In this document: piece by piece, positions 1,485 to 32,000 of the stretch
Position numbering within the stretch: position 1 is the stretch's first letter
How the letters are laid out: each line of letters begins with the position of its first letter
Assembly: GCA_008080745.1 (NCBI GenBank)
Contig: SHMX01000004.1
Location: 300,001-332,000 of the forward strand
DNA length: 32,000 bases
Direction of reading: 5' to 3'
DNA from: Candidatus Thorarchaeota archaeon
GTDB lineage: Archaea; Asgardarchaeota; Thorarchaeia; Thorarchaeales; Thorarchaeaceae
The notes under the pieces: generated by a model
Told to the model about the DNA's origin: nothing
The model's database searches: none
The model's input: only the letters and a program-made list of their open reading frames with translations
Made by a program: the position numbers and the translations under genes

Positions 1485-3455
1485 GTGTCCACAGCGGGAG
1501 GAGCAGCTGAAAGTCTGACTCTAATACATGAAACTGTTGCGGTTCTGGAAATGAATGCAACACATATTGTTCATGATACGAGTTATCTTTACGCTGCCTG
1601 TTCAGATCAGCGGGTGCGAGTAATATCTCGCGAAGATTGGCAGATTAAGGCTGTCTTAGGTGAGACTAGTTCTGAACCATTGTCTGTTCATGTTGACGAT
1701 GAGCACATCTATGCAACTTGTGAGAAACGTGTCTACGTTTGGAAGAAAGAGACCTGGGGCATGCTTGGATGGTTTGAATTGAGCTATCAAGCTGTAACTT
1801 CTACTCTCAGAGGCGATTATCTCTATGTGGGAGCTAAAGAAGGACGACTTGTAGCTATTAAAAAAGACACACATGAAACCTCAAGTTGGCAACTTCACAA
1901 AACCGACATAACGACTTTATGGTCAGATGAAACTCATATTTGCACGGGAACGAAAAAATCCGTGCCAACTGTCTGGTCTCACAAGAAGAATAATCAGCCG
2001 GAAGAACTCCATGTATTGAATCAAAAAATCAAAGGTGCAATCGTCACTGGCAATGAAGATTATATTATCGCAGGCGTTTCAGCCGATGCAATCCATGTCT
2101 GGGATAGAATAGATTGGAAACTTGTTCAGACATTCTCTTCTGATACCTCTGACCCACTCACTGGTTTGTGGGCAAACGAACATTTTGTTGTTGCATCGAT
2201 CAATTCCAATTATATTGGAGTGTGGGATATCAAACGGAGCATGTTCATTGGAAAGGTCAAGGTAAATGGTTACAAAGCTAATGATATAGACGCGGCTGGA
2301 AAACACGTCTTTCTTGCTTCTGATGACGGGCTCGTAATACTCGAACTTCTTCTTAACGAGCTTACTCTTGATTTATCAACCCCCGAAGCTCATGACCTCG
2401 GTGTCAGTCTTCTCAAGACCTCTCCTTATGATGTTCTTGAAGAGGTACTAAAACTGAGAAATAAAGGAGATAAGCTTGTTCAGAATGATGAGTTTCTAGA
2501 AGCTGTTACTGCATTTGAGAAAGCCCTACAATTATTGATTGATAATACTTCAGTCCTCAATGAGGTACCTGAAGAACGACAAAAAATGATGAACGAGATA
2601 AATTCTCGTCTTGGAACCGCTCTTCTAAAGACAAAAATTTCTGAGATTCAAAGATTGGATGCAGAGATTGAACAGATATCGGATGAATTGGACCTCACTG
2701 GGAGAACTGTTCGAGATGATGAAGCGGTGGACAAGCTCTGGGAAGAAGCATCCCGTGCCATAAAAGAAAGTAGAGTTCTAGCTGAAGCACAAGCAGGAAA
2801 TATTCTAAGTTATCAATTGTCTTTTGTCACCGATAATTTGGAGAATGACCTTGAAGACGCTCGTGAGAAGATGGCACAATACCGTGAAAAGATCAATCAG
2901 GCATTGGCTCTAACTCACAGTATCGATAGTGAATGGAGATGGATGGAACGTCGACGAACATCTCTGAATGAACGTAAATCTTTCTTGGAAGGAGCTATCT
3001 CTCAACTAGAGGATAGACTGGATGAGGCTGAGGAAGAAGATGAAGAAGAGGTCAAACAAATCATATCAACTGCTATAGCTGAACATAGACGTGTCCTTGA
3101 CCAGATATCCAGAATTCTCTCTGCATCCGAAAGTGATGACGAACTTCAATCTACACTTGATAGTAGGGATGAAGCATTGGATGCTATTTCTGGTCTACTC
3201 AGTGTTATGCCAAAGAAACGTATGGCAATGCTTCAGATGAAGAATCCAGAGGAGCAGAAACTCGAACTTGAAAGACTAATTTCCGCTATTCAGCAGGCTC
3301 TTCAGACTGCTCGCAAACATAAACTAAAGGAAGAAGTTATACAACTTCAAAATGAGATGAACGGTATCAATTCTCTCTATGAAGATATTGTAGGAAAAAT
3401 AGAGGATGAGTCTGCGGAAGAAACTACTACAACAAAAAAGGAAAAGGTGGCCTAG
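1485..3455 (+). CDS. WD40-like beta-propeller + TPR/MIT-like helical bundle + long coiled-coil protein (656 aa)
   Basis: The N-terminal ~290 aa carry repeated blade signatures (YLYAACSDQRVRVI, HIYATCEKRVYVWKKETW, YLYVGAKEGRLVAI, AGVSADAIHVWDRIDW, NYIGVWDIK). Then comes KGDKLVQNDEFLEAVTAFEKALQLL and an E/K/L-rich helical C-terminal half. GTG start. Confidence 0.85.
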   Translation: MSTAGGAAESLTLIHETVAVLEMNATHIVHDTSYLYAACSDQRVRVISREDWQIKAVLGETSSEPLSVHVDDEHIYATCEKRVYVWKKETWGMLGWFELSYQAVTSTLRGDYLYVGAKEGRLVAIKKDTHETSSWQLHKTDITTLWSDETHICTGTKKSVPTVWSHKKNNQPEELHVLNQKIKGAIVTGNEDYIIAGVSADAIHVWDRIDWKLVQTFSSDTSDPLTGLWANEHFVVASINSNYIGVWDIKRSMFIGKVKVNGYKANDIDAAGKHVFLASDDGLVILELLLNELTLDLSTPEAHDLGVSLLKTSPYDVLEEVLKLRNKGDKLVQNDEFLEAVTAFEKALQLLIDNTSVLNEVPEERQKMMNEINSRLGTALLKTKISEIQRLDAEIEQISDELDLTGRTVRDDEAVDKLWEEASRAIKESRVLAEAQAGNILSYQLSFVTDNLENDLEDAREKMAQYREKINQALALTHSIDSEWRWMERRRTSLNERKSFLEGAISQLEDRLDEAEEEDEEEVKQIISTAIAEHRRVLDQISRILSASESDDELQSTLDSRDEALDAISGLLSVMPKKRMAMLQMKNPEEQKLELERLISAIQQALQTARKHKLKEEVIQLQNEMNGINSLYEDIVGKIEDESAEETTTTKKEKVA

Positions 3456-10268: not shown

Positions 10269-10492
10269 ACGTTTCATTGAATATGCGGGATATAAATCAA
10301 CAATTTCTATATAAGTGACAAAATTCTGAGATGGGTAATCGGTTTCAGTTAGGGGCTGAAACATATTAGAGATATAGGGATTCGCGTTTGGATCAATGGA
10401 ATATTGGTCGTCATAGGTGGAGATGTGAATACGTTCAATCACCAATACATTGGCAGTCGGAACCCTATTTCTATTTCTGGAGGAATCCTTTC

Positions 10493-13400
10493 TTGACATA
10501 CCGTGTTACTTCGTACAGAGTGGGTGTTATTGGTATAATTGCTTTGTTGTTAATTTCATCATTTGCCTTACCATCTGCCGCTATGCCAATTGAACATTCA
10601 TCTAACGAATCAACGATTGCAGAACATCAACCGTCTGTTTTGATTCTCTATGATTCTGGAGATACAGACTTAACAGCTTGTGCTGTTACGATTCGTACTG
10701 TTGTTTTTGATTCGGGAATACCCACGAGAATTCTTGGTGTTCAATCATATTCGTTCTTAGAATATGCTCTTTGTTGTGAAGCAGCAGAGATTATTATCTA
10801 CGTATTCCAGAGCAATTCTTATGGAATAATAATCCGTGATCAGGAGGTAAGTTGGAGTGACTTAACCTCTACGGTTAGTATATACTCGGATGTTGAACAT
10901 ATCGTGCCTTTGGGGAATTCAAATGAGATGAAGAAGATTAATCCAAATTCACCTAATCTTCATACCGAAACCGCCAATGTTGTAGACCTTAGATTAGCAC
11001 AAATATTCTCACTCTGGATCACTGCTGAGATTCTTGTAGATTATCCAAGCAAAACTGTACAGGAAAAAGGAAGAGAACTTCGCAATGTAGTGATGCATGA
11101 CTTTTGTGACAATATTAGCGAATTGATGTCTAAGAGTGCTTTTCCTGATGTATCAACTGGTGAAGATATTCCCGATCCGATAACTGATCCGCGATTGACA
11201 GAAACTTGGTCTGAAGTGATTCCGCAGTATGATGAAGAAGGAACTGAACTAAAACCCATACTCCGGCTATCATCAGAATCTGCACAGGATGAAGAGAGCG
11301 AGTATATCAGCCTTCGTGACATGACCCCTACTAGTGGAATCGGTGGAGCTATTGGCTGGGTTCTTGACCATTTACTCTCTGCAATTACAGGACAAGGAAT
11401 GGAAGATCTTCAGTTGAATATGGACGCAGCTAAGAATATCGTAGCTAAGATGGATTCAATTGTAGAAGATGTCCGACTTGATATTATTGACTGGTTTAAG
11501 GACAAAGGGTATAATGTGACAATGGCTAATATCTCTACAGCTATACCTCAGTTACTTCAAAGTGACATGTTTGAACTCTGGTCATTATCTGATCAATTAA
11601 TTCTTGACGCATGGTATGAAGCTGATGATTGGATTACTGAATTTATTGAACGAATTGTTGCTACACCTGTTCAGACTGATCTCAAGGGGCTTATACCTGT
11701 CTTTCTCTTTCGATTAGGAACACCCCTGAATCTTGGTTCCTCTTTTGCAAGTTTTGGTGCTGTCCTCCGCATCAAAGTTTTGCCAACCTTTGAGATTGAC
11801 AAGACTTTCTTTAAATCGTTCATGAATGACGTTATTTTTGGCAATGACACACTTGCCGCTTTAAATGATACAGAGGCGGCTTTTACTGAAGTTCACAAAT
11901 TTATTGATGTAATTCCGATAATGGATATCGACTTGGGTGTCTGTGCCTTTTTACCGAAGCAAAGCACATGGACCAAAGCGTTACTTGATGGGTTCACCCT
12001 TGATTTCTTTGGTTCTGCACATTTCCAAATTGCATTCCAACCTATTGATGCGAGTGGAACTGACCGTTCATTTATGGAAGTACGTGAGTGGGGCCTTCGA
12101 TTTGAGTTGGATGCATCATATGGAATGACGATTGCCACATTTCTAGCTCCTGGTGCAAGTGGTGCTATCAATACGATTCTTGAATATATTGAACCTCTGC
12201 TTCAGGCTACACTAACTCTCACTTTATCTGTCATATTTGAGATAAGTAAAAAGTATCAGGGACAGGGTCTTCCTGATCTCTCTACTCTTCTCCTTGATAT
12301 TGTTGTGGGGGTCACACTTGATATACGACTGCTTATTGCAGTATTCAAAGGAACCTTCAAAGTAGGAATGAGTTTCGAACAAAAGGAAGGAGTATTAGAT
12401 TCTGGCTCTACCGCCTTAGCCGAGGGGCCAATGTCACCATTCGTTCCTAGCGACACCTCGACCTCTACTATTGGGGTATATCTAACACTCTATTGTTCAC
12501 TCTATTTGGGTATTGATCTCTGGTTGGTTTCATTTGGCACACATTTTGGTGGACCATGGGAGGATACCTTTACTATTTACTCCGATTCTAGCTCTTCTGA
12601 ATATGGATCTGAGTCTGCAGATCTTACAGACACGGACAAGGATGGATTGCCTGACGCCTTTGAAACCCGAATGAATCAACTATATGGTTCAACCTATCTT
12701 GATCCAAATCTAGCAGATACTGATGGTGACGGTCTTAACGACAAACTTGAGCTTGAGATTAACACTTTCCCGAATGATGCTGATTCTGATGATGATCAGC
12801 TTTCAGATTATGCAGAACACATCACTCATGGAACAGATCCTTTACTCAATGATACAGAATTTGATGGACTCGACGATTATGAAGAGGTCGAGGTCTACGG
12901 GACTTCGCCCTTCATAATTGATACAGATGCAGATGGCCTCTCCGACTTTTTCGAAGTCAATGAGACCTATGATGTTACCTATACCAAGAATACCTATGGT
13001 GCAATTAATGAGATTCTTGTGGGAGGCGTTGTATACGATGATAAAACAGACCCACTCAATCCTGATACTGATAATGATATGTTACTTGATGGTGAAGAAT
13101 GGAAGAATGGTGTGGAGTATGCTAATCAGTCTGTAGTGAATGCTAATGATTACATCTACCTTCGTTGGACTCATCCACTTGATGCTGATTCTGACGACGA
13201 CTCTGTACTTTGGTTTGATGGTGGTGGTTATTTCTATCCTAGCAATAGTTTTCTCTATGATATGAATGATGGAATAGAGGTATTGGGCCAGTATATCACT
13301 TTCATTGATATCGAAGGTTATCCTGTGGTTGAATATGTAAAGTGTAACCCTGTAAATCCTGACACCGACTTTGATACTGTTGTTGCACTATTCTATACGG

Positions 13401-15118
13401 ATGGATACGAACTCAGTCGAGACCCACCAACCAATCCCACTAATGGGGATACAGATCATGATGGACTACTGGACGGTGGTGAAGTAATTGGGCCTGGTGC
13501 ATATGGTACTGATGCTCTTAATCCTGATACAGATAATGATAATCTACCCGATTATGAAGATTATATCCTTCCAACTGATCAACGCGATCCCGATACCGAC
13601 GATGACCAAATACTCGATGGTGATGAATACTATATCTATGGTACCAACCCTTGTTTGGCTGACTCCGATTTTGACGGTCTCACTGATTCAGAAGAGCTGT
13701 TCTTCTTCTATTGCAACCCAATGGTACGGGACTCGGATGCCGATGGATTAACTGATGGTGAAGAAATTCTGATTTACCTCACTGACCCCCTTCTGAATGA
13801 TACAGATGGGGATATGCTGGAGGACGGTTACGAAGTTGATGTTTCAGGAACGGATCCGCGATTATTTGATACTGATAATGACCAATTGGGTGATGGTGCT
13901 GAATTGTTTATCTACAAGACAAACCCATTAGATTGGGACTCTGACCATGATTCCCTCACATATCCTAATGAGAATGGAAGTATCACTTTAGCTCTGAGTG
14001 ACGGAGATGAAGTATTAGTCTATGGTACTAATCCCAATTCGGTAGATACGGATCTGGACGGGCTCACTGACTCACAGGAGATTTACCTTGCGATGGGCGC
14101 ACCTAGTTTTGACCCCATTCCACTCGACCCTCTAAATAATGACACGGACGGAGATTCACTACTAGATGGATATGAGATGATTATCAAGAATGTGACCCTT
14201 ATGACATATCCATATGAGGGTATTATGAAGGAGTTGCGTTTCGGCTCTTGTCCAGTTAAGAATGATACTGATGGTGATGGGCTATTAGATAATCTTGAGC
14301 TTGAGCTGATGTGCGATCCATCAGACCATGATACAGATGACGATACGCTTAGCGATTGGATGGAAGTGAACCAAACTGGGACATCTCCACTCTCAAACGA
14401 TACTGATGGTGATGAGATTCCTGATAATCTAGAGGCGTATAATATCACACTAAATACTACTACATCATCTATGTTCATGCTCTCTGCTGCAGGAGAACTT
14501 ACTGAGATATCTGCTAATCAATGGGTCTTTCCCACTTCTGCAACTGATAGTGATTCGGACGATGATCTCTTACCAGATGGGCTTGAGATAATCTATGGAA
14601 CCAATCCCTTCAATCCAGATGACAATAATAATGGTATTCTGGATGGTTATGAGTTCGATTTGGATGGTGACGGACTTAGTGACGCTGAAGAAATTTACAT
14701 TTACCAGACTCATCTTGCACCGCTCCCAATCTCCGATGATTGGACATGGATTGGTGACCCTGGGGGAATAGCCAATCCTGATTCGGATGGTGATTCCATT
14801 CCCGATGGTATAGAGGTTCACACATATGGTTCAGATCCAACCTCTACAGATTCAGATGGGGACGGAATATCCGATAGTGATGAGATTGCACTTGGTGGAG
14901 ACCCCCTAGTACCTATTACCAGCGGACTTCCGACATGGGTGATTATTGCAGCAGCTGGAGGAGTAGGATTGGTGGTTGGATTAGTGTTACCACCTTTGAT
15001 TAGTTTTACAAAAGGAAAGATATCCGACGTAAGAGGCTCTGGCTCAAAAAAGAGCAAAAAGCGTACTAAGAAAACGAAACGAAAGACCAAGTCCAAGAAG
15101 GAGGGTGATACCAAATGA
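10493..15118 (+). CDS. Giant type-I membrane surface protein (~1541 aa): signal peptide, alpha/beta domain, beta-rich region, about 26 Ca2+-binding thrombospondin type-3-like repeats, C-terminal TM and polybasic tail
   Basis: The in-frame TTG at 10493 with GGAGGA at 10479-10484 gives a signal peptide (YRVGVIGIIALLLISSFALPSAA). Repeats such as DTDKDGLPDAFE, DTDGDGLNDKLE and DSDADGLTDGEE. TM TWVIIAAAGGVGLVVGLVLPPLISF, then a K/R-rich tail. Confidence 0.9.
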   Translation: MTYRVTSYRVGVIGIIALLLISSFALPSAAMPIEHSSNESTIAEHQPSVLILYDSGDTDLTACAVTIRTVVFDSGIPTRILGVQSYSFLEYALCCEAAEIIIYVFQSNSYGIIIRDQEVSWSDLTSTVSIYSDVEHIVPLGNSNEMKKINPNSPNLHTETANVVDLRLAQIFSLWITAEILVDYPSKTVQEKGRELRNVVMHDFCDNISELMSKSAFPDVSTGEDIPDPITDPRLTETWSEVIPQYDEEGTELKPILRLSSESAQDEESEYISLRDMTPTSGIGGAIGWVLDHLLSAITGQGMEDLQLNMDAAKNIVAKMDSIVEDVRLDIIDWFKDKGYNVTMANISTAIPQLLQSDMFELWSLSDQLILDAWYEADDWITEFIERIVATPVQTDLKGLIPVFLFRLGTPLNLGSSFASFGAVLRIKVLPTFEIDKTFFKSFMNDVIFGNDTLAALNDTEAAFTEVHKFIDVIPIMDIDLGVCAFLPKQSTWTKALLDGFTLDFFGSAHFQIAFQPIDASGTDRSFMEVREWGLRFELDASYGMTIATFLAPGASGAINTILEYIEPLLQATLTLTLSVIFEISKKYQGQGLPDLSTLLLDIVVGVTLDIRLLIAVFKGTFKVGMSFEQKEGVLDSGSTALAEGPMSPFVPSDTSTSTIGVYLTLYCSLYLGIDLWLVSFGTHFGGPWEDTFTIYSDSSSSEYGSESADLTDTDKDGLPDAFETRMNQLYGSTYLDPNLADTDGDGLNDKLELEINTFPNDADSDDDQLSDYAEHITHGTDPLLNDTEFDGLDDYEEVEVYGTSPFIIDTDADGLSDFFEVNETYDVTYTKNTYGAINEILVGGVVYDDKTDPLNPDTDNDMLLDGEEWKNGVEYANQSVVNANDYIYLRWTHPLDADSDDDSVLWFDGGGYFYPSNSFLYDMNDGIEVLGQYITFIDIEGYPVVEYVKCNPVNPDTDFDTVVALFYTDGYELSRDPPTNPTNGDTDHDGLLDGGEVIGPGAYGTDALNPDTDNDNLPDYEDYILPTDQRDPDTDDDQILDGDEYYIYGTNPCLADSDFDGLTDSEELFFFYCNPMVRDSDADGLTDGEEILIYLTDPLLNDTDGDMLEDGYEVDVSGTDPRLFDTDNDQLGDGAELFIYKTNPLDWDSDHDSLTYPNENGSITLALSDGDEVLVYGTNPNSVDTDLDGLTDSQEIYLAMGAPSFDPIPLDPLNNDTDGDSLLDGYEMIIKNVTLMTYPYEGIMKELRFGSCPVKNDTDGDGLLDNLELELMCDPSDHDTDDDTLSDWMEVNQTGTSPLSNDTDGDEIPDNLEAYNITLNTTTSSMFMLSAAGELTEISANQWVFPTSATDSDSDDDLLPDGLEIIYGTNPFNPDDNNNGILDGYEFDLDGDGLSDAEEIYIYQTHLAPLPISDDWTWIGDPGGIANPDSDGDSIPDGIEVHTYGSDPTSTDSDGDGISDSDEIALGGDPLVPITSGLPTWVIIAAAGGVGLVVGLVLPPLISFTKGKISDVRGSGSKKSKKRTKKTKRKTKSKKEGDTK
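12629..14890 (+). repeat. Protein-level array of about 26 D-[TS]-D-x-D-G-[LI]-x-D-x-x-E Ca2+-binding repeats, many followed by G-T-[DN]-P
   Basis: Counted by eye in the translation. Codons are diverged, so this is not a recent DNA tandem repeat. Confidence 0.9.
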
Positions 15119-18100
15119 AGCAAACTACACACCGATTTATAGCGCTACTGTTAGCAATTGTAATGTTGACCACTATATCTCCTATAGGATTAATGGATTC
15201 TCTATCTCCTATCGAATCAGTAGATGAGACCTCTGTACCAAGTAATCCTACTATAGTGCTTGATCCAGCACCCTTCAATCTAACGAATGATTATCAAAAG
15301 ATTTGGGAACCAAATAATATCCGGGGTTCTACTCATGCAGTTGATGCCTCTCCCAGCAAGGACTTAGTGGCAACTGCAGGGGGATGGCTATCAGACACAG
15401 AAGTACACGTCTATAGGTGGGATCCTGATACATCCCAATACTACCATGTTGAATCGCTTGGAGATGGAATCTTCCAAGGAGATGTATTGGATGTCAAATT
15501 CATGGATGCCGATAACAATGGTAGATTAGAGATAGTTGCGGGTTGTGCGGATGGCACAATCTACGTATTTGAGGCTCTGTCTGTAGAGGATGGTGTATTT
15601 TCTGTATATAATTCTGCTAACTTTTTTGACCTAGTTTGGAATAGCAGTACAATTATCGATCGGCAAATATGGCAAATAGAGGTAGCAGATATAGACCATG
15701 ATGCACAGACTGAGATAATCGCTGGAGCATGGGATTCAAAGGTCTATGTCTTTGATTATGTTGACCACTCCGCTTGGCCTTATTGTTCTTATCATTGGAT
15801 GGATTTCGAATATGTCTGGGATAGTGGTGATACGATTTCTGGAAGAGTTAATTCTGTTGCAGTGGGAGATGCTGATGCAGACGGATTGACTGAAATCTAT
15901 GCAGGCAGTCAAGATTGCAAGGTATATAGATTTGAAGAAATTCCCTGTCTGAAACATACCTATGTCTACAGATGGGATAGCGGCGATAGTATATATCGTC
16001 CAATTAATTCGATAACTATCTCAAATAATATTGATAATGATGTATTCGGGGAACTCGTTGTTTCTGCTTATGGACAAGGTGTGTTTATCTTCCATTACGA
16101 TGATAGCATAGACGACTTCACAATCCGTAAGATAAATCAGCAGCTTGCAACCTGGGAGCAGGGCGTTGTGCCTACAACTGGTGTATACTCCGGCTATGAG
16201 GCGGACCCCTATGCCGACAAGAAGATTTACGGCTGGAACCCTCAAGGTATCTATGAACTTGATACATATCCTTATCCTTGGAATAATACCTACTTGGGCG
16301 GTGACTCAGCTCTAGGTGGTCCACCAGATCATGCACTAACGACATTTGATGCAACCGGTCCATACCAATATCTTGGAGAGTGGGTTTACCCAGTTGGTAC
16401 GGATTTGAATGAATTTGGTTTTGTAGGAGCTCTTACCGTAGATGTAGATGGATTTACCTATGTGTGTGATGCAAATACGGATGTCATAAAGAAAATTGAT
16501 GTATTTGGTGAAGTTATTCTTCAATGGGGTGGTACAGGCTCTAATGTGAGTGAATTAGATACTCCATTAGGAATTGCGATTGGAATCGATGGCTGTGTCT
16601 ACGTTTCTGATGCATATAATCACAGGATTCAGAAATTCACTGCTGAAGGTACTTTCATTACTGCATGGGGTGAAAACGGGACTGAACCGGGCCAATTCCA
16701 AATTCCTTATGGAATTGATGTTGATAGCAATGGCTCCGTGTACGTTGCTGATGCATTGAATAACCGAATCCAGAAATTCACATCGGATGGAGAGTTCATC
16801 ACTGCTTGGGGTACTCTAGGTACTGGAGATGGTGAACTGAATACTCCCTACGATGTTGCAGTGAATGATGAGTTTGTGGTAGTTTCAGATCATGAAAACG
16901 ATAGACTCCAGATATTTACTCACTGTGGGGAGTTCATTCGAGAAATGGGTGGTGCAGCTGATATCGACCTACCGGCTGGGCTAGATATAGATCCGGATGG
17001 TTTCATTTACGTCGCTGATTTCGAATATGATCAGGTTGTTAAATTCACAAAATACGGTGAAATAATCGATAAAATTGGTGTTCCTGGTATTGGACCCTTA
17101 GAATTCTCGAACCCCTATAGTATTGAGATTACTGAAACGGGTATTCTTGTATCGGATACATCAAATAACAGAATTCAAAAAGTCGGTTATCTCACTGTTG
17201 AGAATGACGTTCTCAGTTCACTTGATCCATTCTATAATTTGGGTGGTATTGTTGATGTTGCAACTAGCCCCGAGGGATACATCTATGTAAGTGATTTATC
17301 TAATGACTCGGTCATTAAATATGACTACGAAGGGAACTATGTGCGGTCTTGGGAGGTACCCAGTGATATTGGTGGAGAACCCGCTGACATCTATGGGATT
17401 GGTACTGACATTGATGGCAATGTCTATGTCTGTGATTATGATCGGGATATTGTACAGAAATTCAGTAGTACAGGGACACTCCTAGACGAAATTGGAAGTG
17501 GCTATCTTAGTTATCCTTACGATGTGACCATCGATGAGGCCGGATATATCTATGTATCCGATTATTTCGGAAATAGAATAGGTGTCTTTAATCCCAGTGG
17601 TACCTACGTGAGAACCATTGGCAGTTCAGGATCAGGATTTGGATATCTATCATCACCCGGTGGTATTACCATTGGTACTGACGGATTACTCTATGTATGC
17701 GACATTGGCAATAGTCGTGTCCACTCCTTTGAAACTGACGGTACTCCGATTGATGAATGGCCCGTGGGCTACACTGCAGCATTTTGGATTGCATCTTCTC
17801 CTGACGGATATCTATATACTTCGGGTAATGATGATGCGGTTCATGTCCATACACTATCAGGTCATGAAGTAATGTCGATTCCATCAAATATAGGACCTGA
17901 TTCAGAACTGATTTCACCCTATGGATTATCGATTGATTCATCAGGCAATCTGTTCGTGGTTGATTATACAAGCCACACCATCTGGGGATTCTCTTCTGCA
18001 TATTCTTACACGTTCAAAGCCACTGCTATTGTTGACTTTGGAGAATGGGAAGAACTGGGTGGGGACTCGACAGCATCTACCGATTTAGTGGTCTATTCTC

Positions 18101-28291: not shown

Positions 28292-30124
28292 GTGCCTAAT
28301 TCACAACATCACAAGATAGCAGAAAAATTAAGAGAAGAGGAATGGTTCAAATCCACTCTTGATGCAATTCCTGAACCAGCATATCTTTTTGAACTTGACA
28401 ACGATGGTGATATTCGTCTTGTCATGATCAATCAGCATGTTCAAACATTAACTGAAGGTGCAATTCTGTCAGAGATCGGTTCCAAAATTGAAGATATTTT
28501 TCCAAAAACACCTGAAGTCCTCAATGCCATTCGTCATGCGGTAGATAAAATGAAACTTACACGAATAGAAGGACAAATGAAGGGGAGTGGCTTACATGGA
28601 GACCGTTGGTTCATCTGGACCGTTACACCCTTCTCAGAGAACACAATTCTTCTTATCACATCAGACATAACTGAGAGTAAAATCGCTTCCGAAGCACTGG
28701 AAGAAAGTGAGCGCGAAAAATCTATCGTCTTAGATTCAATGATACAACATGTGAATTACTATGGAACCGATGATATGAGCTTACTATGGAGCAACAAAGC
28801 AGCTGCTGATTCTTTAGGTTTATCAATTGATGATATGAAAGGAAAGACATGTCATGAACTATGGCACGGACGAGCTGAACCATGTGAAATTTGTCCAGTT
28901 ATCAAGGCTAGAGAAACAGGAGAGAAACAAGAGGCTGAAGTAATAACCCCTGATGGGAGATTATGGCACATAGAAGGTATACCCGTATTTGATGAGACCG
29001 AGCTTGTAGGTTTAGTTGAAATAACCATGGAAATAACTGAGAAACGGAAAAGCGAAGAGGTGCTTAAGAAAAACCATGAGAACCTTCGTACTCTATTTGA
29101 CACAATCGACGATATGGTATTTATTCTATCAAAAGATGGGCTAATACTGGAGATAAACTCAGCAGTTCTCTCAAAATTAGGATATTCTCGAAATGAACTG
29201 ATTACAGAGAATTTTCTAATGGTCCATCCTCCTGAACAACACCAAGAAGCCGAGGAAATCATGCATGAGATGCTTGGTGAGACACGGGAATCTTGTAACA
29301 TTCCACTATTAACAAAGAATGGTGAGAGGATTCCAGTAGAAACTCAAGTAACCATTGGGCTTTGGGGAAATGAAACAGCGATATTTGGAATATCTCGTGA
29401 TATCTCTATCCAAGAAGAAGCTATGCGTCAAGTCCGAGAGGCTAAAATGCGAGTCGAGTTATTCAACGACTTGATGGTGCATGATCTAAATAACATCAAT
29501 CAAGGTGTAATGGCAGGTCTCGAATTACTTTTGTTTGATCCTGCCACCCCAAAACATTTCCATGAACGTATTGAGATTGCTTTGCAACAGATAAAGAGAA
29601 GTATCGATTTGATATCGAAAGTGCGAAAGTTCTCTCACGTAGATAAGGAACCTATCAGGCTAATTCCAGTAAAAGTGGTGCCCGTTCTCAAGAGTGCTAT
29701 TGAATCAAATCGTCATACTTTCCCAGACAAAAAAGTTCATCTGACCTTCTATGCACAAGACGAGGATATTCAGGTTATGGCTGACGACTTCATCTATGAT
29801 GCCTTTTACAATATAATTCATAATGCCTTCAAACATTCCCGTTCCAAAGAAATCATTCTCGAAATTGAGGTTCTTCCGTTTAATAATGATTACATATCAA
29901 TCTCAATTGCAGATGATGGTCCTGGAATATCGGAAGATATCAAAGAGAGTCTATTTCATAGAATGGATGAAAAGAAAAGAGTATCTTCTGGAATCGGATT
30001 TACACTTGTAAATCGAATAATGGAACGTTGTCAAGGGAAGATCCTGATTGAAGATAGAGCTGTAGATGGTAGATCTCAGGGAACTAAATTTATTATACAT
30101 ATTCCCCGTGTGCGTGGGGGATAA
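28292..30124 (+). CDS. Cytoplasmic PAS-domain sensor histidine kinase (three PAS/PAC domains + HisKA + HATPase)
   Basis: PAS signatures (WSNKAAADSLGLSIDDMKGKTC, EINSAVLSKLGYSRNELI). H-box LMVHDLNN, N-box NIIHNAFKH, G1 IADDGPGI, G2 SGIGFTLV. No TM segment. Confidence 0.93.
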   Translation: MPNSQHHKIAEKLREEEWFKSTLDAIPEPAYLFELDNDGDIRLVMINQHVQTLTEGAILSEIGSKIEDIFPKTPEVLNAIRHAVDKMKLTRIEGQMKGSGLHGDRWFIWTVTPFSENTILLITSDITESKIASEALEESEREKSIVLDSMIQHVNYYGTDDMSLLWSNKAAADSLGLSIDDMKGKTCHELWHGRAEPCEICPVIKARETGEKQEAEVITPDGRLWHIEGIPVFDETELVGLVEITMEITEKRKSEEVLKKNHENLRTLFDTIDDMVFILSKDGLILEINSAVLSKLGYSRNELITENFLMVHPPEQHQEAEEIMHEMLGETRESCNIPLLTKNGERIPVETQVTIGLWGNETAIFGISRDISIQEEAMRQVREAKMRVELFNDLMVHDLNNINQGVMAGLELLLFDPATPKHFHERIEIALQQIKRSIDLISKVRKFSHVDKEPIRLIPVKVVPVLKSAIESNRHTFPDKKVHLTFYAQDEDIQVMADDFIYDAFYNIIHNAFKHSRSKEIILEIEVLPFNNDYISISIADDGPGISEDIKESLFHRMDEKKRVSSGIGFTLVNRIMERCQGKILIEDRAVDGRSQGTKFIIHIPRVRGG

Positions 30125-30130
30125 TTATTC

Positions 30131-30496
30131 TTATCGAGATTCGTAGTCTTCTATTGCTTTATGCAATGCCTCTGCTGCAAGATTGCTACAGTGCATCTTT
30201 TGTGGTGGTAGCCCATCTAAAGCCTCAGCAACCTGACTACGTGTAATCTCCTTTGCTTCTTCTAAGGTCTTACCGATTGCCATCTGTGTCGTCATAGAGG
30301 AGGTTGCAATTGCAGCTACACAACCAAATGTTTCCACCTTGATATCCTTTATCACACCATCAATGACTCGGATATACATTTTCAGCATATCTCCACAAAC
30401 GGGATTTCCCACAGTTCCTACGCCGTCAGGGTTTTCCATTTTTCCCATATTTTGGGGGTCTCTAAAATTTTCCATTACCTTTTTGGAGTATGCCAT
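30131..30496 (-). CDS. iscU: Fe-S cluster scaffold IscU/NifU-N
   Basis: YSKKVMENFRDPQNMG, GNPVCGD, FGCVAAIATSS, PPQKMHCSNLA. All three Cys plus the conserved Asp and His are present. Confidence 0.97.
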   Translation of the reverse strand: MAYSKKVMENFRDPQNMGKMENPDGVGTVGNPVCGDMLKMYIRVIDGVIKDIKVETFGCVAAIATSSMTTQMAIGKTLEEAKEITRSQVAEALDGLPPQKMHCSNLAAEALHKAIEDYESR

Positions 30497-30555
30497 TGAG
30501 AATACCTCTTGTTTTCCCGGTTAATTGGTATCTATAATATTTGCTCTGATGGCAT

Positions 30556-31773
30556 TTACCAATCATCTTCTGGGAGATCGTGATGATGATCATGCTCATC
30601 AGAATCGTCATTTGCAAAATATACTCCTGTTTTGAGTGGGCTAAATTCTCTCAGTCTTTCTACTGCAGGAACTAATGATTCTACTAATTCATCTATTTCT
30701 TCTAGAGTGTTATATCTGGAGAATGACACTCGAACTGACCCATGTGATATTTCAGGGGGAAGTCCGATTGCTTTCAATACATGACTACCCTGCAGAGTCT
30801 TTGATGAACATGCTGAACCAGTAGAAACAGAGAAACCATCCATATCTAATTGGACTAGTATTGATTCTCCTTCTATTTGTTCTATAACAATACTGAAAAT
30901 ATTAGGTAATCTCTTTTCCGGGTGGCCGGTTACTCGATAATCTGTTAGATTTTCTGCTAGCTTTTCCTTTAGATGTTTACTAAGTTTTTCAAAGTGTTCA
31001 ATCTCATTGGCACTCCAGATTTCCACTGCTTTCGCAAAACCCACTGCTCCCGGAATATTCTCAATGCCTGGTCTCAGCCTTCGTTCTTCGTCTCCACCTT
31101 GCGTAATATTGGATATTTTGGTCCCTCTTTTGATATAGAGCACTCCAATCCCTTTAGGACCATGGATTCTGTGTGCGTCGATACTAATCAAATCCACAGG
31201 AATTTTCTTTGTATCCAATGGTATCTTCAAGTAACTTTGGCTTGCATCTGTATGAAATATTATCCCGTTCTTCGATGTGATCTTTGCAATATCTTCAATG
31301 GGTTGAATGGTGCCAATCTCTCCATTTGCATGTTGGATAGATATTAGAAATGTATCCTTTTGGATTAAATCTTTGAGATGGTCAAGGTCAACTCGTCCAG
31401 TTTCATCAACATTGACAGTGTCGATTTCAAAATTAAATTCCTTCAATGAATGAATCGTCTTTAGTACCGATTGTGTTTCTATGGGGCTAGTAATGACATG
31501 TTTTCGAGAACCGCTCTTTGCCTTTACTGACCCTTGGATAGCAATATTGTTTGATTCAGTTACACCTGATGTAAAAACAATTGCTCTAGAATCTGCATTA
31601 AGGGATTCTGCTATTATCTTTCGGGCATTTTCCAGTCCGGTTAATGCCCCAACATCTTGTGCATGACTTAGCTCAAGTCCTGCGGTCCCATAAAACTCCC
31701 GAAAATAAGGGAGCATGGCTTCAATGACTCGTTCGTCAACTCTGCTTGAATTTGCACTATCAAAATATGCCAT
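30556..31773 (-). CDS. IscS/NifS-like cysteine desulfurase homologue lacking the PLP-binding residues; His/Asp-rich tail
   Basis: Fold-type I motifs TSGVTESNN, HTDASQ, GPKGIG, STGSACSS and GSVRVSFSR are present, but EH->ET, NNEIG->NGEIG, SxHK->DAHR and RSGT->RPGI. Start placed at ATG 31773, directly after the upstream TGA. Confidence 0.88.
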   Translation of the reverse strand: MAYFDSANSSRVDERVIEAMLPYFREFYGTAGLELSHAQDVGALTGLENARKIIAESLNADSRAIVFTSGVTESNNIAIQGSVKAKSGSRKHVITSPIETQSVLKTIHSLKEFNFEIDTVNVDETGRVDLDHLKDLIQKDTFLISIQHANGEIGTIQPIEDIAKITSKNGIIFHTDASQSYLKIPLDTKKIPVDLISIDAHRIHGPKGIGVLYIKRGTKISNITQGGDEERRLRPGIENIPGAVGFAKAVEIWSANEIEHFEKLSKHLKEKLAENLTDYRVTGHPEKRLPNIFSIVIEQIEGESILVQLDMDGFSVSTGSACSSKTLQGSHVLKAIGLPPEISHGSVRVSFSRYNTLEEIDELVESLVPAVERLREFSPLKTGVYFANDDSDEHDHHHDLPEDDW

Positions 31774-31774
31774 A

Positions 31775-32000
31775 TCACTTGACACCGTCTTTACATGCCC
31801 TGCAATCCTCTGGAACATGTACACAGTGCTCGCGATGTATGTCACACATTATTCCCTTATCACGGAGAACCTTAATTATTCGATTAATCTCGTGAGTCAT
31901 ATTTTCGTAAATTTTAGACCTTTCTTCTTCGTTTTCTACTTTATCCCAAGTATCAAGAATTTTATCAACTGATTTGTCTATCTCCGGTTGGACCTCATCT
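31775..32000 (-). CDS. 3' end of an unidentified gene with a Cys/His-rich C-terminus (absent from the ORF track)
   Basis: Manual translation of 31999-31775: DEVQPEIDKSVDKILDTWDKVENEEERSKIYENMTHEINRIIKVLRDKGIMCDIHREHCVHVPEDCRACKDGVK*. The stop lies 1 nt before the iscS-like ATG. Confidence 0.8.
   Translation of the reverse strand, partial: DEVQPEIDKSVDKILDTWDKVENEEERSKIYENMTHEINRIIKVLRDKGIMCDIHREHCVHVPEDCRACKDGVK

Follow-up and report, generated by a model that had tools for sequence, protein, structure and literature searches.

An IscS-like protein without the cofactor lysine, conserved beside IscU in Asgard archaea

The stretch analysed here (the window, 32,000 nucleotides; contig SHMX01000004.1 of Candidatus Thorarchaeota archaeon assembly GCA_008080745.1, positions 300,001 to 332,000) encodes an IscS-like protein of 405 amino acids with the fold of a type I cysteine desulfurase and without the lysine that binds pyridoxal 5'-phosphate (PLP). 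The gene (30556-31773, minus strand, including the stop codon) lies between the genes of a regulator and of a canonical IscU scaffold. We call the Lys-less IscS-like protein IscS*, and IscS* together with its orthologues type A. As the Lys, the PLP-stacking His and three more cofactor contacts are all replaced, IscS* most likely cannot perform PLP-dependent C-S cleavage. The Lys-less state is shared by all orthologues, and the gene evolves under purifying selection, judging from codon comparisons. We consider it probable that IscS* is a desulfurase-dead IscS, which docks IscU and lends it the Cys of its mobile loop, while the sulfur comes from sulfide or from another persulfide donor.

The cofactor site of IscS*

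Read directly on the minus strand, the frame is open from the ATG at 31773 to the stop codon at 30558-30556. A longer, GTG-started open reading frame is not needed, as the ATG-started N-terminus aligns with Archaeoglobus fulgidus IscS2 from residue 1. In a domain search, the protein matches Aminotran_5 (PF00266, class V aminotransferase) with an E value of 5.8e-74. It remains below every NCBIfam equivalog cut-off of the NifS, IscS, DndA and related models, with scores of 411 against 530.75 for TIGR03402 (NifS), 330.7 against 643.2 for TIGR02006 (IscS) and 336 against 548 for NF010611. The best solved relative in a sequence comparison is A. fulgidus IscS2 (E value 1e-94). The AlphaFold2 model has a pLDDT of 89.6, and low confidence or disorder is predicted only for the Cys loop, where it fits the mobility of this loop, and for the C-terminal tail. 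In Foldseek, this model superimposes on human NFS1, A. fulgidus IscS and E. coli IscS with TM-scores of 0.9-0.96 and on NifS with about 0.9.

The residue correspondence rests on alignments to solved IscS structures and on a profile of 127 Lys-bearing (canonical) relatives. E. coli numbers were mapped by offset from the structure alignments and the literature. For conservation within type A, we used a set of 68 orthologues, which comprises the proteins from a word-indexed search and ten loci of relatives' genomes. All codons given below lie on the minus strand, where each of the five substitutions named in a preliminary description of this DNA was found as described.

Arg202 (AGA, 31168-31170; context D-A-H-R-I-H-G-P-K-G) stands at the position of the Schiff-base Lys, which is K206 in E. 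coli IscS and is present in 100% of the canonical relatives. Its counterpart in the alignment is Asp in A. fulgidus IscS2 (Asp199) and Lys in the D199K variant of that protein and in other desulfurases. Within type A, the column holds His (60%), Leu (22%), Arg (13%) and Val, and Lys in none of the sequences (0%).

Thr100 (ACA, 31474-31476; context P-I-E-T-Q-S) takes the place of the His that stacks on PLP and acts in acid-base catalysis (E. coli H104; 99% His in the canonical relatives). In type A, the residue is Thr in 44%, Val in 43% and His in 10%. Such variability of both former catalytic columns suggests that they no longer host any chemistry.

Asp199 (GAC, 31177-31179) replaces the phosphate-binding Ser (E. 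coli S203; 77% Ser in the canonical relatives) and is fixed in type A (97%). The negative charge that it brings to the phosphate site speaks against a cofactor with a phosphate group. Gly151 (GGA, 31321-31323) corresponds to the second Asn of the NNE motif (E. coli N155; 97% Asn in the canonical relatives), and Gly is found there in 81% of type A. Ile237 (ATT, 31063-31065) lies at the Thr of the RSGT motif (E. coli T243; 97% Thr in the canonical relatives), which reads R-P-G-I in IscS*. The position is hydrophobic in type A, with Val in 69% and Ile in 25% (94% together). The set Arg, Thr, Asp, Ile and Gly put forward in the preliminary description is not conserved as a set: only Asp199 and the hydrophobic residue at 237 are fixed, and the Lys and His sites drift, the former through His, Leu, Arg and Val and the latter through Thr, Val and His.

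Other parts of the active site have been kept. The equivalents of E. coli Asp180, Gln183, His205 and Arg354 are Asp176, Gln179, His201 and Arg348, the last of which (30730-30732) corresponds to the Arg binding the substrate carboxylate. Asp176, the partner of the pyridine N1, as well as His201, Thr72 and Arg348 are retained at 99-100% in type A, and His204 is fixed. Arg348 reaches 100% both in type A and in a bacterial clade with Thr at the Lys site, and it is replaced by Gln, Leu or Glu in relatives with Asp at that site. The GNPSS loop is remodelled in a clade-fixed manner (Asn30 to Thr, a two-residue insertion, Gly40 to Asp).

Cys322 (TGT, 30808-30810) lies in the mobile GSACSS loop and is present in 100% of type A. 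Both the loop Cys and the intact full-length frame of the preliminary description are borne out. The protein ends in a clade-specific tail (residues 385-405; 30559-30621, minus strand), which begins with YF and continues with an acidic run and D-H-H-H-D-L-P-E-D-D-W; it is predicted to be disordered. The tail is conserved within type A only, at 66-88% for each His, and its columns are gapped in 54-100% of the sequences in the Thr-type and canonical groups. The His run is missing from one orthologue (G010).

The E. coli IscS variants K206A, H104Q and Q183E have no desulfurase activity, and mutation of Asp180 likewise abolishes it (PMC9978102). The stacking His was reported to be necessary for stable PLP binding, while K206A retains some PLP (PMC9978102).

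Conservation of type A and its relation to other Lys-less proteins

The word-indexed search found about 64 proteins that are 62-79% identical to IscS*. Their sources label them as Thorarchaeota, Lokiarchaeota, Hermodarchaeota or Promethearchaeota, and none has the Lys. All 68 orthologues of the type-A set, with identities of 62-80%, are full length. The substitutions are common to the whole clade and are due neither to chance nor to sequencing error. Sister genomes carry Arg/Thr or His, Leu and Val and not Lys/His at the two catalytic sites, contrary to what had been named as refuting the original observation. The DNA comes from a marine sediment metagenome, and the stretch is identical in 215-kb contigs of two runs (44x and 121x coverage) of one marine-sediment study, which may be the source samples and are therefore not independent.

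Compared with a congeneric genome, the proportions of nonsynonymous (pN) and synonymous (pS) differences in the IscS* gene are 0.127 and 0.80, the latter being saturated, and the raw pN/pS is 0.16. In nearly all orthologue pairs, pS exceeds 0.75, which leaves the Nei-Gojobori dS undefined, and the one dN/dS estimate, 0.08, is saturated as well. No genome closer than the congeneric one was found for rate estimates. By these values, the gene is under purifying selection. The identity of IscS* to its congeneric counterpart (79%) falls among those of the neighbouring genes (61-97%), for example IscU with 91%, the enoyl-CoA hydratase with 83%, the regulator with 77%, SIR2 with 73% and the kinase with 61%. 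Nothing was found in favour of a decaying pseudogene or of sequencing errors; we give this reading practically no credence, because it is refuted by the comparative data, namely the open frame, the Lys-less state of all 68 orthologues, the raw pN/pS (with its saturated pS) and the identical contigs of the two runs, even if these may be the source samples.

The closest described counterpart is A. fulgidus IscS2 (PDB 4eb5 and 4hvk; D199K variant, 4r5f), with about 42% identity to IscS*, a TMt of 0.96 and a root-mean-square deviation of 1.6. Both proteins lack the Lys, have the loop Cys and are encoded alongside IscU. A. fulgidus IscS2 has no desulfurase activity, and the Cys of its loop is a ligand of the [2Fe-2S] cluster on IscU; it was proposed to be a scaffold partner that contributes this Cys ligand and relies on sulfide for its sulfur (PMC7585200, PMC8918507). 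It also binds pyridoxamine 5'-phosphate (PMP) or PLP non-covalently without the Lys (PMC8918507). A. fulgidus IscS2 has Asp in an SSND motif and keeps the stacking His, the Asn, the Ser and the Ser/Thr; it has lost the carboxylate-binding Arg and has no tail. IscS*, in contrast, has a DAHR motif, has lost the His, Asn, Ser and Thr, keeps Arg348, and possesses an acidic His-rich tail and a dedicated regulator. It is thus the more degenerate of the two, as had been suggested. From this comparison, we infer that IscS* works like A. fulgidus IscS2 yet is of another type. For Methanosarcina acetivorans IscS1, which was reported to be without the essential Lys and formed inclusion bodies, it was also suggested that it acts like the A. 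fulgidus protein (PMC7585200).

With canonical type I desulfurases such as E. coli IscS, NifS and human NFS1, IscS* shares the fold, the GSAC loop, the pairing with IscU and the residues Asp176, Gln179, His201 and Arg348. It differs from them by the absence of the Lys, His, Asn, Ser and Thr of the PLP site and by its scores under the equivalog cut-offs. The nearest large group of relatives (47-50% identity) is the bacterial Thr-type clade, found in metagenome-assembled genomes (MAGs) of Chloroflexota, Anaerolineae and Halanaerobiales. Its members have also lost the Lys (to Thr) and the His (to Asp), and they keep the Cys, Arg348 and His204. In the Thr-type clade, however, the substitutions (Thr, Asp and Gln) are fixed and do not drift, and there is no tail.

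Thirteen of the 149 nearest 50%-identity cluster representatives are without the Lys. In the trees, the type-A sequences form a monophyletic group (support 100) with a long stem of 0.47 changes per site. It groups with the large Thr-type clade, a few other Lys-less sequences and two Lys-bearing ones (FastTree support 97, SH-aLRT 94), while the Asp-type proteins form a separate clade in the best tree (SH-aLRT 95). The approximately unbiased test did not reject type A and Asp-type as one clade (log-likelihood difference 37, p 0.09; the group was named after the tree had been seen), so that type A and the A. fulgidus type may share one origin. FastTree needs five state changes for the loss of the Lys, and the starred branches force three. 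Among 40 related genomes, 24 belong to the same family and 10 of these carry type A, in addition to the genome studied here; it usually occurs besides an Asp-type copy. When the best type I match in each of 30 Asgard genomes is taken, 11 are type A, 14 have SSND, 2 have ANS and 3 have the Lys. In the literature searched, the coverage of which is incomplete, we found no description of the Asgard type-A clade, of the Thr-type clade or of a link between TusA-DsrE and Lys-less IscS.

The operon and other sulfur-transfer genes of the genome

IscU is encoded 59 nt downstream of IscS* (30131-30496, minus strand, 121 amino acids). It consists of a clean NifU_N domain (E value 2.4e-43), and the cluster ligands (three Cys, one Asp and one His) are all present and invariant among the orthologues, in line with its earlier description as canonical. 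Across orthologous type-A loci, IscU is 74-91% identical. It follows IscS* in 9 of the 10 relatives' loci, that is, in every one whose flank could be read. A complex prediction for IscS* and IscU gave 0.42, compared with 0.01 for the best of three controls, and the runs agreed in at least 72% of the contacts with a partner pLDDT of at least 88. Of 80 solved complexes, 58 pass the mark, compared with 2 of 110 mismatched pairs. Passing scores of 0.60 or less, however, came from only 7 of the 80 complexes and from both mismatches. As this is a textbook pair and a similar complex has already been solved, the pass may reflect structures known to the predictor, and the prediction lends the pairing weak support.

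Upstream of IscS* lies the gene of a helix-turn-helix (HTH) regulator, the 3' part of which (31775-32000, minus strand) is within the window. It runs past the window end; the whole gene (locus L002 2591-3043, minus strand) encodes 150 amino acids, and its TGA overlaps the ATG of IscS*. This regulator is found upstream of IscS* in 11 of 11 type-A loci. It has no Pfam family above the cut-off, and the matches to HTH domains are weak only. At the C-terminus, it carries the motif C-x-[IV]-H-[RK]-x2-[CS]-x2-V-x3-C-x-A-C, in which three Cys and one His are invariant, which makes it a candidate sensor of Fe-S clusters or metal. The operon is probably controlled by this Cys/His-bearing regulator. Upstream of the regulator gene (L002 about 3045-3110; L018-L027), most of 10 loci have a TATA-like CTTATAT or a near variant and, about 20 nt beyond, a palindrome-like element, TTCACTAT(A/T)GTGAA. 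The genome's own copy, AACAATAGTGAA, has kept only one good half-site. The element may serve as an operator for autoregulation. Another palindrome upstream of this gene, GGCAAT/ATTGCC, was dropped as an operator candidate since it is not conserved in the orthologous loci. A scan for sigma-70 promoters and terminators found sites no more frequently than in shuffled sequence, and the sigma-70 model is not applicable to archaea.

The IscS*-IscU pair has the HTH regulator and the SIR2, PAS kinase and enoyl-CoA hydratase genes as neighbours, and neither HscAB, IscA and Fdx nor other carriers are encoded nearby. By gene content, it is a minimal two-gene system like MIS (MisS-MisU), which also comprises IscS and IscU without chaperones or carriers. 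In the reviews consulted, however, MIS is described with a cysteine desulfurase, which IscS* most likely cannot be. A GC-rich hairpin with a stem of 10 pairs (30100-30123) is located between the convergent stop codons of iscU and the PAS histidine-kinase gene.

The assembly (3.16 Mb) is 98% complete, and no canonical, Lys-bearing type I IscS was found in it. Exactly two IscU genes are present, each adjoining a Lys-less IscS. The second IscS is the only other type I copy and has the SSND motif, with Asp at the Lys site as in A. fulgidus IscS2. It belongs to an operon on contig 1 (locus L004 868-3458) with the order TusA, DsrE, IscS (SSND) and IscU fused to an extra domain; the fused part of this IscU (L004 2667-3458) comprises about 130 residues without a Pfam match. 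Like IscS*, the second IscS and the Asp-type (SSND) proteins of other Asgard archaea are without the Lys, are encoded beside IscU and keep the loop Cys. They differ in being only about 40% identical to IscS* and of the A. fulgidus type, in having neither an HTH regulator nor the tail, and in their surroundings, with TusA and often DsrE before the gene and an IscU with a fused extra domain after it.

Of the 17 listed Asgard loci with an Asp-type or ANS-type IscS, 14 have TusA before the Lys-less gene, and 11 of these 14 also have DsrE; the genome's own copy adds a further case. The TusA-DsrE order also occurs before a Thr-type IscS in a Halanaerobiales MAG (locus L015), where a radical SAM gene lies upstream; the one Thr-type locus that was read has the order radical SAM, TusA, DsrE, IscS and IscU-FeS_assembly_P. 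Type-A loci and Lys-bearing loci are without TusA/DsrE. This gene order suggests that the sulfur-relay pair TusA-DsrE feeds the Lys-less IscS.

Whether a canonical IscS or SufS exists elsewhere in the genome, a point raised at the outset, has a divided answer. No canonical type I IscS is present, and there is one stand-alone SufS-type (type II) gene, at 280198-281331 of contig 2, with the full canonical set (EHHS, Asn, Asp..Gln, SVHK, RSGAHC) and 25% identity to IscS*. One SufB gene was also found. A further SufS/CsdA-like protein (contig 2, 383517-384629) has SGNI in place of SxHK and has lost the stacking His, but retains the Cys loop of type II enzymes. With it, the Lys-less class V proteins of the genome number three.

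Two other parts of the window stand out. At 23939-25984 (plus strand), this Asgard archaeon encodes a complete NAD-dependent DNA ligase of the bacterial type, LigA, which comprises adenylation, OB, zinc finger, HhH and BRCT domains. At 10388-22763 (plus strand), three consecutive large open reading frames (1576, 1939 and 624 amino acids) contain TSP3, NHL/beta-propeller, FG-GAP and fn3 repeats and are probably giant surface proteins.

Possible roles of IscS* and their meaning

Homology, strict gene pairing and the conserved loop Cys suggest that IscS* docks IscU and supplies Cys322. IscS* keeps the type I fold and the mobile loop, and presumably also the dimer and the IscU docking site. Bound to IscU, it would contribute Cys322 to the cluster under assembly, where this residue would act as a fourth ligand or carry a persulfide, as has been proposed for A. 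fulgidus IscS2. The protein would be free of PLP. The sulfur may come from ambient sulfide of the sediment or by trans-persulfuration from another donor. Candidates for such a donor in this genome are the canonical SufS-like enzyme that is encoded on its own and TusA and DsrE of the second operon.

Several points weigh against this picture. The functional role is assigned by comparison and prediction. The near-complete retention of Asp176, His201, Thr72 and Arg348, the last of which is lost in the A. fulgidus-type relatives, means that some ligand may still be bound. A. fulgidus IscS2 itself still carries non-covalent PMP or PLP (PMC8918507). The A. fulgidus model does not explain the conserved His-rich tail or the retained Asp176 and Arg348. 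Finally, type A is an accessory copy, found in 11 of the 25 family genomes searched and usually in addition to an Asp-type protein, so its role may be conditional or specialised and not that of general Fe-S assembly.

The retained residues can be read in two other ways. IscS* could be a PLP-independent Fe-S assembly factor, whose old pocket binds metal or sulfide/persulfide and whose acidic His-rich tail delivers Fe(II) to IscU; a frataxin-like iron donor and a sulfur relay would then be combined in an active factor, in place of a passive scaffold. The clade-fixed Asp199, His201 and His204 and the frequent His202 (60%) and His179 (59%) lie close together in the sequence near the former Lys position, which would suit a metal site, as would the D-H-H-H-D...W tail that is absent outside the clade and the retention of Asp176 and Arg348. 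However, positions 202 and 179 are not fixed: IscS* itself has Arg202 and Gln179, and the Leu or Val found at 202 in some orthologues is unable to ligate metal. Together with the predicted disorder of the tail and the orthologue that has no His run, this leaves us regarding such a factor as possible but unlikely. The same retained residues, Asp176, Thr72, His201 and Arg348, would also fit a protein in which PLP or PMP remains bound without a covalent link and supports a slow or altered PLP-type reaction, all the more as A. fulgidus IscS2 (PMC8918507) and to some extent E. coli K206A (PMC9978102) hold the cofactor without the Lys. Here, the stacking His that is essential for stable PLP binding (PMC9978102) is Thr or Val, Asp occupies the place of the phosphate-binding Ser, Asn has become Gly and Thr has become Ile or Val, and the GNPSS loop is remodelled by the two-residue insertion. 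We therefore judge a retained PLP-type reaction to be improbable.

Two further readings would separate IscS* from its IscU or give it another partner. As IscS is described as a general sulfur hub in bacteria, and as the loop Cys is conserved, the protein might relay persulfide outside Fe-S assembly, for tRNA thiolation or a sulfur cofactor, with IscU as a mere neighbour. The IscU adjacency is nevertheless strict in type-A loci with a readable flank, the conservation of IscU is very high, and the operon has no thiolation genes, so we hold this to be very unlikely. Type I desulfurases are dimers, the active sites of which use a residue of the partner subunit, and it had been considered earlier that IscS* might pair, as an inactive subunit, with a canonical IscS from another locus. 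For such a heterodimer there is hardly any room in the 98%-complete genome, where no type I IscS with the Lys was found: Asp occupies the site in the other type I copy, and the sole canonical enzyme is a type II, SufS-like protein with 25% identity. A desulfurase-dead IscS that docks IscU and provides Cys322 remains our favoured explanation.

A. fulgidus IscS2 and studies of the sulfide-dependent SMS system, which included complementation of an E. coli strain devoid of ISC and SUF (PMC12192291), have posed the question of how the minimal IscS-IscU systems of anaerobes build clusters without cysteine desulfuration. The Lys-less state is not a single oddity, since 27 of the best type I IscS-like matches in 30 Asgard genomes are without the Lys and 3 have it. 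What is new in type A compared with the A. fulgidus protein is the more thorough loss of the cofactor site and the clade-specific acidic His-rich tail. The site has been dismantled much further and the protein is strongly conserved, with a Cys/His-bearing regulator of its own. As bound PMP confuses the picture in A. fulgidus, type A is the cleaner test case for the roles of IscS at IscU beyond sulfur supply. Since no other archaea are as closely related to eukaryotes as the Asgard group, its Fe-S machinery is also of evolutionary interest. If IscS* were the PLP-independent factor outlined above, Asgard archaea would own a self-contained, regulator-controlled machine that makes clusters from inorganic sulfide and Fe(II).

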